Source: a virus (Duplodnaviria; Heunggongvirae; Uroviricota; Caudoviricetes). From it: DNA of 53,880 nt. The stretch lies in IMG/VR virus record IMGVR_UViG_2617270943_000003, positions 1 to 53,880 of that record; one strand, given 5' to 3'. A model generated the notes under the pieces. That model ran no database searches. It was given only the letters and a program-made list of their open reading frames with translations, and was not told the origin of the DNA. Made by a program: the position numbers and the translations under genes. Position 1 is the stretch's first letter, and every line of letters begins with the position of its first letter. Positions 51,688-53,880 of this stretch are shown piece after piece.

Positions 51688-53880
51688 ATGATTTATACAA
51701 CGGGAACAATTGCCATTAGCGGCAATACTGTTACAGGTACGGGAACAAACTTTTCCGCGCCGCTTTCTCTCATCCGTGTAGGGTGCACGCTAATTGCCAT
51801 TAGCAATCCTATCCAGATCTTTACCATCACAGAAATTAAGAACGGTACTGAATTATCAGTGACGCCAGCGGCTAATCCTGCCATCGCTGCAGGGACAAAA
51901 TTTAGCATTCTGCTTTCTGACTCGATCTCAGTTGATGGGCTTGCTCAGGACGTAGCGGAAACGCTTCGTTTTTATCAGGAAAAAGAAGATGAAATATCCA
52001 GCGCCATAGATGGTAGCAATATTGGTTTAGGGCCAGAGCCGCGAGATTGCACTGATATATCAGGCAACCCGTCTTCTTACGTTGGCTTTTTACGCATCAA
52101 GGAAACAGCCAATGGCTTTCCTGACGTAGCGGCTGGTGAGTCATTTTTAAGTGGATTCATCTGTCAACGAGACGGCACGCCTTCATATACAGGCGTATTT
52201 GTCGGTTGGTCCACGCGATCACTTTATACTTATACATGGGTCGCAACATCAGGCCCGAACTGGACACGCCACGCACGGAAGGATGAAATAGATCGCTTGC
52301 TTCAGGTTAGTAACTCCGCAAAAGAAACTCAGTTATGGGACGGAGAAAAGAAAAATTACATCTTCGTTAATAACACCGGGTGGGGTGCTTATTCAAAGGA
52401 TGGGGCTGTTAAGTTAGGCGTTATGTATGGCGGTACTGGAGGAGGAAACGCAGGAGAAGCCAGAAAAAACTTAATGGTTATGTATGATGCAAAAACTAGC
52501 CTTGATGCGAGTCAAAATCTTGATGACTTAAAAGGAAGCTCATCAGGCTTTTATCATCAAGTACTCTCTGCCAACGCAAAACCTGAATTAAATTACCCGG
52601 TACAGATTGCCGGTTCATTGTTAGTGCAAAAAACTGGCGCAGGCGATTCAGAAGGGTGCATACAGACCTATTATTTGTTTAACAATATGGCAATTAGTTA
52701 TAGAAGGGCGTATGGCGGGCAAGGTTGGAGCGCATGGAAAAAAATAGTATCAACAGAAAGAATTGAAGAAGGCGAATCGACTACTTACGTTTATTCGAAT
52801 TATTTACCAACAGCGCCACGCTTTCAGGTGTCAACATCTGGATTGTGGGGTTGTCATAACGGATCTGGATGGGTTCCATTAGCTATCTCACAGGGTGGTA
52901 CTGGTGCGGCAAGCGTTGATAATGCCAGGACTAATCTCGGATTGGGTAGAAATAGCAGCCCTCAGCTTGATAGCCTGTTTCTCGACAAGTCTAGTGATTC
53001 TACTAGTAACTACACTAGTGGCGGGATGCTCCATACGAGACTGTTAGCAAGTGATAACACTGTGCGCCTTGCTGGTGATATGTATGTTCAGACTTACCCA
53101 AATGAGCTAGGTCGATTAACAATAAGGTTTATATGCGGTGGTTCAACTGGCACTACAAGATATCTAGAGCTTACCACAGAAGGTAATTTGCTTGTAGATA
53201 GTGCAATACTAAAATCAAATCTTGAAAAACCTTTGCAAATAAATAGTGTTAACCCGGCAGTAATGTTTAATGAAACAGATCGCCCTGCAAACACGCCTAC
53301 TTATACTCTCGTTGCTAATGCTGGCGACTGGTTTATTCAGAAGCGCTATTATGATGATGCCGGAAGCGTTAGCAACGCAATTGCATATAGTTTCGCAAAC
53401 GACAGACTTGATGTACAAAATCTTAAAGCATCTGGTCACATTACATGCGTAACAGTAAACCAGTCATCAGATCGCGATCTGAAGGACAACATTCAGGTTA
53501 TAGGCGATGCTACTGAAGCCATCCGTAAAATGAACGGGTACACCTACACGCTTAAGGAAAATGGTCTGCCTTACGCTGGCGTTATCGCTCAGGAGGTCAT
53601 GGAGGCGCTACCGGAAGCGGTAGGATCGTTTACTCATTACGGTGAAGCGTTACAAGGTCCGACCATTGACGGCAACGAGCTACGCGAAGAAACGCGCTAT
53701 CTTAATGTTGACTACGCTGCGGTGACTGGTTTACTTGTCCAGGTGGCACGCGAAACAGATAACCGCGTCACCGAACTGGAAGAGGAAAACGCCAGCTTAC
53801 GTGCTAACATTGCCGTCATGGATGAGCGGATCACAAAACTTGAAGCGCTTGTCAGGAAGTTAACCGGAAGCGAAAAATAA
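51688..53880 (+). CDS. Tail fibre protein with C-terminal intramolecular chaperone (S74-like) domain
   Basis: C-terminus (DLKDNIQVIGDATEAIRKMNGYTYTLKENGLPYAGVIAQEV...YLNVDYAAVTGLLVQ...coiled coil) resembles the self-cleaving chaperone domain of tail fibres; Gly/Thr/Ser-rich fibre region upstream. Confidence 0.75.
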   Translation: MIYTTGTIAISGNTVTGTGTNFSAPLSLIRVGCTLIAISNPIQIFTITEIKNGTELSVTPAANPAIAAGTKFSILLSDSISVDGLAQDVAETLRFYQEKEDEISSAIDGSNIGLGPEPRDCTDISGNPSSYVGFLRIKETANGFPDVAAGESFLSGFICQRDGTPSYTGVFVGWSTRSLYTYTWVATSGPNWTRHARKDEIDRLLQVSNSAKETQLWDGEKKNYIFVNNTGWGAYSKDGAVKLGVMYGGTGGGNAGEARKNLMVMYDAKTSLDASQNLDDLKGSSSGFYHQVLSANAKPELNYPVQIAGSLLVQKTGAGDSEGCIQTYYLFNNMAISYRRAYGGQGWSAWKKIVSTERIEEGESTTYVYSNYLPTAPRFQVSTSGLWGCHNGSGWVPLAISQGGTGAASVDNARTNLGLGRNSSPQLDSLFLDKSSDSTSNYTSGGMLHTRLLASDNTVRLAGDMYVQTYPNELGRLTIRFICGGSTGTTRYLELTTEGNLLVDSAILKSNLEKPLQINSVNPAVMFNETDRPANTPTYTLVANAGDWFIQKRYYDDAGSVSNAIAYSFANDRLDVQNLKASGHITCVTVNQSSDRDLKDNIQVIGDATEAIRKMNGYTYTLKENGLPYAGVIAQEVMEALPEAVGSFTHYGEALQGPTIDGNELREETRYLNVDYAAVTGLLVQVARETDNRVTELEEENASLRANIAVMDERITKLEALVRKLTGSEK

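Follow-up and report, generated by a model that had tools for sequence, protein, structure and literature searches.

What does the last gene of an E. coli prophage contribute to the way the phage finds its host? The question arises for the virus record IMGVR_UViG_2617270943_000003 (Caudoviricetes), of which we analysed all 53,880 nucleotides, called the window below. The window is an integrated E. coli prophage with an integrase open reading frame (ORF) at its start, and it stems from contig JNPK01000021.1 of the E. coli assembly GCA_000703725.1. Its terminal gene, at 51688..53880 on the plus strand, had been described in a first-pass annotation of the bare sequence as a tail fibre ending in a self-cleaving, chaperone-like domain. 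We think it quite probable that the gene encodes the lateral fibre of an integrated temperate siphophage of E. coli of the mEpimmI (mEp021-like) type, and that this fibre is modular, capped by an S74 domain and glycan-binding, acting before the central fibre protein J engages a porin.

The limits of the gene proved exact. ORF calling and translation give a single unbroken frame of 730 amino acids (aa) for a precursor of 78.9 kDa, and the TAA stop forms the final three bases of the window. In the sequence, a GGAG ribosome-binding site (RBS) precedes the ATG at 8 nt, and alignments with homologues begin at residue 1-3. PHROG tail-fibre families match the protein with E-values down to 7e-156 and cover all of its parts, and every PHROG match is labelled "tail fiber". 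These matches, an anchor shared with Drexlerviridae and the position just after J support the identity as a tail fibre. NCBI names a 100% identical protein "pyocin knob domain-containing S74 family peptidase"; the annotation as an S74 family peptidase is already public, and the feature as such is ordinary, even textbook. The gene and its parts can be laid out as follows:

51688..53880, plus strand: side (lateral) tail fibre gene, the terminal gene of the prophage, from the ORF, the PHROG matches and the identical NCBI protein
51688..52011, plus strand: N-terminal anchor (virion-attachment) domain, aa 1-108
52015..52302, plus strand: conserved proximal domain, aa 110-205
52303..52959, plus strand: variable shaft or knob-like region, aa 206-424, flanked by two GGTG...AR.NL motifs
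52960..53466, plus strand: beta-rich distal domain, aa 425-593, ending at Ser593 and predicted to form the receptor-binding tip once the fibre is mature
53464..53484, plus strand: predicted autoproteolytic site with the scissile bond between Ser593 and Ser594; nucleophile Ser594 (TCA, 53467-53469), general base Lys599 (AAG, 53482-53484)
53467..53877, plus strand: intramolecular chaperone (ICA) or Peptidase_S74 domain, aa 594-730, 15.2 kDa, with a coiled-coil helix end at aa ~686-726

As the first-pass annotation had expected, a profile search places a chaperone domain of the S74 type at the carboxyterminal end. Pfam PF13884 (Peptidase_S74) matches aa 594-645 over profile positions 1-57 of 58, with an E-value of 2.4e-14 and 53.8 bits, above a gathering cut-off of 22 bits. 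PHROG tail-fibre families span the whole C-terminal domain (aa ~560-720), among them phrog_4563 at aa 570-712 with E 8e-56. Matches of this strength are well outside the range of chance. A profile made from the C-terminal alignment (A5) reaches solved ICA domains, namely those of S16 gp37 (6f45, 1.8e-11), of MYRF (7dc3, 6.6e-8) and of the GA-1 neck appendage chaperone (3gud, 0.04), and BLASTP aligns the C-terminus with the L-shaped fibre of T5-like phages (Epseptimavirus) at 30% identity and E 2e-14, with the SD..LK residues aligned. With a curated profile above threshold, a conserved Ser-x4-Lys dyad and homology to characterised and solved ICA domains, we regard the S74 assignment as confirmed at the sequence level.

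From the catalytic Ser594 to the C-terminus the domain counts 137 aa, so that its proposed place at the C-terminus holds and its proposed length of about 150 residues is slightly too generous. Both stretches that had been quoted for it occur in the protein: DLKDNIQVIGDATEAIRKMNGYTYTL from aa 597 on, and YLNVDYAAVTGLLVQ just ahead of a heptad-like helical tail that extends to aa 730, with coiled-coil matches for aa ~686-726. Insertions in the ICA among homologues occur in steps of 7 and 14 residues. The N-terminal part had been called Gly/Thr/Ser-rich, which is mildly true, as the G+S+T content is 32% for aa 1-110 and 27-31% up to aa 590, compared to 19% for aa 591-730.

The ICA begins with S594-D-R-D-L-K599 (SDRDLK), and the Ser-x4-Lys dyad corresponds to Ser594 and Lys599. 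An "SD...K" motif is found in all 120 of the 120 closest database homologues. In an alignment of 50 sequences, S594, D595, R596 and K599 are invariant, and when mEp021 Gp82 and the T5-like L-shaped fibre are added, the same is still true of the S, the D and the K, and of G631, I633, A634, Q635, P642, E643 and V645. The lead-in C-x-T/A/S-V-N-Q-S ahead of Ser594 is likewise conserved. Catalysis in T5 pb1 depends on Ser1264 and Lys1269, spaced i/i+5 just like Ser594 and Lys599; the mature pb1 fibre comprises residues 1-1263 and the released chaperone 133 aa (PMC4690869). Cleavage unmasks the receptor-binding tip of pb1, and the uncleaved protein fails in receptor competition (PMC4690869). For the window fibre, we predict from the sequence a cut between Ser593 and Ser594 that would yield a mature fibre of 63.7 kDa and a chaperone of 15.2 kDa.

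The nucleophile position differs in one relative. In the mEp010 fibre gene (L002:1961-3925), codon 519, which is homologous to window positions 53467-53469, reads TGT (Cys) in place of TCA or TCT (Ser), giving NQSCDRDLK. Ser stands at this position in mEp013, mEp044, mEp554, the window and the 120 of 120 database homologues. The mEp010 codon is either a variant with a Cys nucleophile, or the mark of a cleavage-dead fibre that is tolerated on K-12, or a sequencing error.

Upstream of the ICA, the fibre can be followed domain by domain. The anchor (aa 1-108) aligns with residues 4-109 of solved "Depolymerase" chains from phages (7vyv, 7vz3 and 7lzj, E 4e-23), and according to tblastn it is 42-52% identical to the N-termini of Drexlerviridae fibres and tailspikes (Webervirus, Rogunavirinae). 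The proximal domain is conserved in mEp044 and in lambdoid-prophage fibres of 1160 aa, and a full-length AlphaFold2 (AF2) model is confident only here, at aa ~120-200 (pLDDT 84-90 for aa ~120-190). The GGTG...AR.NL motifs are located at aa 248-262 and aa 403-418. Positions ~270-424 give weak profile matches (E 0.0025-0.013) to the knobs of R2 and R1 pyocin fibres (6ct8, 6cl6, 6cl5). Foldseek returns 6cl5 and 6cl6 with probabilities of 0.98-0.99 yet with TM < 0.2 from a low-confidence model, which makes these matches hints only; against the PDB as a whole, the full-length model finds weak local matches only, to baseplate receptor-binding proteins (RBPs) of staphylococcal phages and to pyocin fibres, with TM < 0.2. 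NCBIfam gave no meaningful match for the fibre or for the lipoprotein encoded next to it, and the "pyocin knob" of the public name was not reproduced from that library. In aa 425-593, AF2 places beta strands at low to moderate confidence. By analogy, we predict that this segment is the receptor-binding tip and becomes exposed upon release of the chaperone. The "prophage tail fibre N-terminal" domain PF08400, present in the 1160-aa relatives, has no match in the window fibre, and no pectate-lyase, beta-helix or glycosidase family was found in it by Pfam or NCBIfam.

The phages closest to the window are mEp044, mEp013, mEp554 and mEp010. They belong to the "mEpimmI" (mEp021-like) group of coliphages described in 2025 (PMC11893012). 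In three of these four phages, the homologous terminal gene bears the label "hypothetical protein", and in the remaining one "tail fiber protein"; the mEp021 product Gp82 is named "tail structural protein". PF13884 matched in all four fibres scanned (mEp021, mEp044, mEp010 and one lambdoid relative), and the mEp013 and mEp554 fibres contain the SDRDLK motif, so that the domain is present in each of the six mEpimmI fibres looked at, the window fibre included. In comparison with mEp044 and mEp010, the N-terminus and the ICA of the window fibre are near-identical and the middle is swapped. Residues 110-585 are 61% identical to aa 355-837 of the ~1160-aa lambdoid-prophage fibres, with 71% identity in the ICA. 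Homologues hardly vary in the ICA and differ entirely in the ~30 residues ahead of it, which suggests that the ICA boundary acts as a recombination junction for swaps of receptor-binding modules. The fibre is a mosaic, in which a Drexlerviridae-type anchor and a near-invariant ICA cassette enclose a variable knob-like middle. As a further S74-ended relative, E. coli K-12 StfR (Rac) was considered and rejected, as BLASTP found no significant similarity and StfR has a separate TfaR.

Variation among close alleles has a similar distribution. Nine distinct intact alleles of 729-730 aa share 96% identity in the anchor and 94% in the ICA, 74% in aa 263-402 and 69% in aa 425-500. This is the pattern of a functional, diversifying receptor-binding protein rather than of a decaying one. 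The module is very widespread, with matches to the query region in 772 of 5426 complete E. coli genomes and in 1496 phage records.

Together, these data suggest a model for maturation and adsorption, in part by analogy to endosialidase, T5 pb1 and MYRF. The ICA and the coiled coil would bring three chains into register, and the ICA would then template how the distal part folds into an intertwined trimer. With Lys599 to activate it, Ser594 would cut the bond to Ser593, the 15.2 kDa chaperone would leave, and the 63.7 kDa mature fibre would remain with its receptor-binding tip unmasked. The mature fibre would provide reversible primary adsorption, most likely to a surface glycan (O-antigen or core of lipopolysaccharide, LPS), as siphophage biology and the relatives suggest. 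J would then bind irreversibly to a porin, likely LamB, and in lysogens the small lipoprotein encoded between the genes for J and the fibre would block superinfection. The two adsorption steps conform to a general scheme for siphoviruses, in which lateral fibres address glycans and central fibres address porins (PMC11990801). RBPs of Webervirus cluster I, which carry an ICA, self-cleave and bind O-antigen without enzymatic activity (PMC13463945).

The part assigned to J and the lipoprotein depends on the genes upstream of the fibre gene:

44364..45068: lambda-like L, upstream tail gene
44975..45802: K-like NlpC/P60 protein, upstream tail gene
45745..46275: I-like ORF, upstream tail gene
46272..51230, plus strand: central tail fibre or host-specificity protein J of 1652 aa, which contains a long insert of coiled-coil repeats; the presumed binder of the terminal receptor
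51236..51256, no strand assigned: bidirectional intrinsic terminator between the J and lipoprotein genes, with an 8-bp stem of which 6 pairs are GC and T-runs on both strands
51262..51510, minus strand: small lipoprotein, 82 aa, with an LTGC lipobox at residues 16-19; antisense to the tail genes; phrog_12984 "lipoprotein"
51511..51687, no strand assigned: divergent intergenic region between the lipoprotein and fibre genes, which carries the GGAG RBS of the fibre gene (read from the sequence)

J contains the Pfam domains FNIII-A_GpJ, Phage-tail_3, Ig_J, Ig_J_second and Phage_Tail_Tip and matches phrog_31 "central tail fiber J". With mEp044 J it shares 81% identity across most of its length, the last ~130 aa being diverged, and its tip region is only remotely similar to that of lambda J (24% identity). 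In the relatives, J determines porin use, that is, dependence on LamB or OmpA (PMC11893012). An Ala/Asp-rich coiled-coil repeat insert of ~500 aa occupies aa ~830-1330 (window 48700-50200), with units like RLDQAIADE.SAR..AIS.VNASI..L, and accounts for the length of 1652 aa compared to 1132 aa in lambda. The repeat number differs from that in mEp044 J (1828 aa), and repeats of variable length in J have also been noted for mEpimmI phages (PMC11893012). The terminator behind J is annotated at the homologous position in mEp010, mEp013, mEp044 and mEp554.

The lipoprotein is 94% identical to mEp010 Lpp and 91% to mEp044 Lpp, and from this we identify it as the type-C Lpp exclusion protein of mEpimmI phages. 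The cloned type-C Lpp010 excludes mEp010, mEp044, mEp554 and lambda, so the small lipoprotein is a factor of superinfection exclusion (PMC11893012). Because the lipoprotein next to J is of the type that excludes LamB phages, LamB is the likely receptor of J, a guess that is reasonable but indirect. The idea that the fibre, J and this lipoprotein form a host-range module agrees with the close relatives, in which J has been tied to porin use and the lipoprotein to superinfection exclusion (PMC11893012). The lipoprotein had originally been called Cor-like. This is apt for its function as a type-C Lpp and fails for homology, as neither sequence nor profile searches found it similar to Cor or Llp. 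Pfam gave no match at E ≤ 0.1 and a PDB sequence search none at all; the PHROG matches were phrog_12984 and one weak unknown family only, without Cor or Llp. The tblastn records listed, 30 of the 44 that matched, were mEpimmI and virulent coliphages, with none from phi80, T1, N15 or HK022. Like Cor (phi80, T1, N15, HK022) and Llp (T5), the window lipoprotein is small and lies beside a receptor-binding gene, and blocking of superinfection through the same porin has been shown for the 94%-identical Lpp010. It differs from them in that sequence, profile and PDB similarity are absent, in that its relatives target LamB-dependent infection and not FhuA, and in that its gene is antisense.

Two observations on this slot go beyond the mEpimmI type-C proteins. 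The C-terminal two-thirds of the lipoprotein have homologues of 60-75% identity in the virulent siphophages Seurat, 9g, CAjan and EP23 and in KurtStettler and GottfriedDienst of the BASEL collection, which suggests a porin-blocking lipoprotein family common to temperate and virulent coliphages. Between J and the fibre, mEp021 additionally carries an antisense "virion structural protein (putative FlgL-like)" by the type-A lipoprotein (L004:1302-2237, record positions 51741-52676, minus strand), for which the window has no counterpart.

How far known systems resemble the window fibre can be stated domain by domain. T5 pb1 (PDB 4UW7/4UW8) is also a siphophage lateral fibre with a C-terminal ICA of ~133-137 aa, a Ser/Lys(i+5) dyad and a terminal coiled coil; it lacks enzymatic activity and works beside a separate binder of the terminal receptor (PMC4690869). 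Only the ICA is detectably homologous, however, as pb1 has 1396 aa, a collar/p132 anchor and a "bullet" tip, and the window phage is temperate and unrelated to Demerecviridae. The mEpimmI side fibres (mEp044_112, mEp013_106, mEp554_113, mEp010_118 and mEp021 Gp82) are, like the window fibre, encoded by the last gene after J, the terminator and the antisense lipoprotein gene, and share the N-terminal ~100-205 aa and a near-identical ICA with it. They differ in length (449-854 aa), only 43-56% of the DNA aligns at ~90% identity, and those of mEp010 and mEp044 have an extra distal domain. The lambdoid-prophage fibres of ~1160 aa (for example, P0049) share the receptor-binding lineage and the chaperone cassette, but have a lambda Stf-type PF08400 attachment module and an extra distal domain of ~175 aa before the ICA. 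RBPs of Webervirus cluster I follow the same plan of Drexlerviridae-type anchor, non-enzymatic body and C-terminal ICA; they stem from Klebsiella phages, though, and what they share is limited to the first ~108 aa, at 42-47% identity, and to the ICA family. The K1F endosialidase chaperone (the founding member of S74) and the ICA of MYRF share the Pfam family and the logic of the Ser-Lys dyad with the window fibre, but carry other cargo, a sialidase beta-propeller with triple beta-helix in K1F and a eukaryotic transcription factor in MYRF. Sequence searches with the window fibre did not retrieve endosialidase. The lambda Stf type, defined by PF08400 and a separate Tfa, does not describe the window fibre in either respect.

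Several points speak against our interpretation of the locus. The AF2 monomer models are poor, with a mean pLDDT of 52 for the full length (from an alignment of 50 sequences) and of 51 for aa 560-730 (from 19 sequences), both alignments being shallow and of low diversity, and are too poor to verify the ICA and tip folds; in the model of aa 560-730, the terminal helix (pLDDT 81-89) is the sole confident part. Such models cannot test the ICA fold, because the homologues are too alike and the domain is an obligate trimer. Self-cleavage of the window fibre, or of any mEpimmI fibre, is predicted by analogy; PMC11893012 never treats the gene, and neither the paper nor its supplements yielded mass spectrometry or processing evidence on the fibre. 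As the J tip has diverged from that of the LamB-using mEp044 J, LamB use is inferred through the lipoprotein only. Since both OmpC and O-antigen have been connected with the side fibres of lambda (PMC11990801), a protein receptor is possible. Lastly, the window allele lacks a distal domain of ~150-175 aa, located ahead of the ICA in mEp010, mEp044 and the lambdoid fibres of 1160 aa, and its tip geometry therefore differs from that of the better-sampled relatives. In the window fibre, the junction between ...NLKASGHITCVTVNQS and SDRDLK resembles both flanks of that extra domain, which suggests that the window allele arose by in-frame deletion between similar strands.

Four other explanations were weighed. 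The fibre could bind an outer-membrane protein, OmpC-like as for lambda Stf, instead of an LPS glycan, which would leave architecture and processing unchanged and which we consider rather unlikely. No sugar-binding site can be identified from the fibre sequence, but its middle region is weakly similar to the knobs of R-pyocin fibres, and R-pyocin fibres bind LPS. The Ur-lambda side fibres were originally proposed as OmpC binders, as related at second hand in PMC11990801, and mEp021 and mEp515 retain residual infection without OmpA, suggesting alternative receptors in the group (PMC11893012). Yet the closest functionally studied lateral fibres with an ICA, T5 pb1 and the Webervirus cluster I RBPs, bind O-antigen (PMC4690869, PMC13463945), and in the BASEL study the Ur-lambda side fibres overcome O16 O-antigen (PMC11990801). 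An enzymatic tailspike or depolymerase in place of a non-enzymatic fibre seems to us very improbable. It would accommodate the anchor, which is common to the solved "Depolymerase" chains 7vyv and 7lzj and to Drexlerviridae proteins annotated as tailspike or depolymerase, and S74 domains were first described on endosialidase tailspikes. However, the similarity to depolymerases ends at residue ~109, Pfam and NCBIfam detect no enzymatic family, the middle resembles fibre knobs and not beta-helices, and the PHROG matches all say "tail fiber".

The missing distal domain bears on two further explanations, both of which we regard as improbable. Its loss might disturb the active-site geometry, so that the S74 domain of the window allele would be present but non-cleaving, a permanent C-terminal cap. 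Catalysis in T5 pb1 does involve residues upstream of the cut (Asp1239, Arg1250 of the neighbouring chain and Thr1263; PMC4690869), equivalents of which cannot be mapped on the poor models of the window fibre. But Ser594, Asp595, Arg596, Lys599 and the lead-in are fully conserved, the 94% identity of the ICA over the nine alleles is consistent with a selected, working domain, and, to judge from the failure of uncleaved pb1 in receptor competition, a non-cleaving fibre would probably be non-functional. Alternatively, the gene could be a remnant of the prophage that is in decay or can be dispensed with, derived by deletion from a longer fibre gene, its product no longer built into virions. In favour of this, most relatives are longer, and the gene seems to have lost a segment in frame where a motif recurs; its place is the border of the prophage by attR, behind a terminator and an antisense gene, and laboratory lambda has lost its side fibres and kept its viability (PMC11990801). 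Against decay speak the intact ORF with a good RBS, the nine alleles of the same length with the conserved ends and variable centre typical of working fibres, the annotation of the homologous mEp021 product as a tail structural protein, and the prophage around the gene, in which integrase, tail genes and att repeats are intact. A working, self-cleaving lateral fibre that addresses a glycan remains the reading we prefer.

The borders of the prophage show how the window was cut. A 22-bp direct repeat, TGTGTACCAAATAGTGACCAAA, occurs at window positions 13-34 and again 58 nt past the fibre stop in the source contig (L008:6251-6272, beyond the end of the window), and probably represents the att core. 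Its left copy falls within the 5' end of the called integrase ORF (1..1236), which puts the true start of the integrase probably at the ATG at position 37. The window evidently extends from the integrase start through the fibre stop. Downstream of the fibre gene, the source contig continues with a terminator, the att repeat (attR) and host genes (an AraC-type regulator and efflux components). No tail-fibre assembly (tfa) gene was found 3' of the fibre gene in this contig, as expected if the chaperone is built into the fibre. A search for tandem repeats in the fibre gene gave nothing relevant. The bidirectional terminator and the antisense gene stand between the late tail operon and the fibre gene; transcription of the latter by late antitermination with read-through, or from a promoter of its own, is conceivable, and a consensus scan found no sigma-70 promoter in the 177-bp intergenic region 51511-51687. 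Further upstream, two clusters of small minus-strand ORFs (61-115 aa) interrupt the forward tail-gene operon, one at 41441-42365 between the tape-measure gene (39067..41409) and the M-like gene (42459..42812), the other at 43247-44354 between the M-like gene and L (44364). Both look like moron-type insertions.

What the analysis adds is modest, and beyond correct annotation its importance is little. It fixes a function for a gene that three of the five mEpimmI records deposited in 2024 (PP180001-PP180005) list as "hypothetical protein". Mildly new are only that the fibre has been ignored in the published description of mEpimmI phages and that in the window allele the ICA is joined to another tip than in the longer relatives. 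The boundary between hypervariable tip and near-invariant ICA is a handy junction for fibre engineering, a principle that is no longer new for fibres and tailspikes with an S74 domain. In the one study of the group, the choice of receptor is ascribed to J alone (PMC11893012). It is a tentative proposal, which we ourselves doubt somewhat more than we believe, that the mEpimmI side fibres are an overlooked second host-range determinant and that the 730-aa allele is a natural in-frame deletion which fuses the ICA to the penultimate domain of its relatives. If this were true, one chaperone, conserved at ~94-99%, would fold and release structurally different tips, and would be a "universal" plug-in cassette across lambdoid, Drexlerviridae-like and mEpimmI fibres. 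For the biology of the group, our reading would mean that gut-prevalent temperate coliphages carry a lateral fibre besides J, and that conclusions on receptors and host range drawn from K-12, which lacks O-antigen, may miss the primary receptor.

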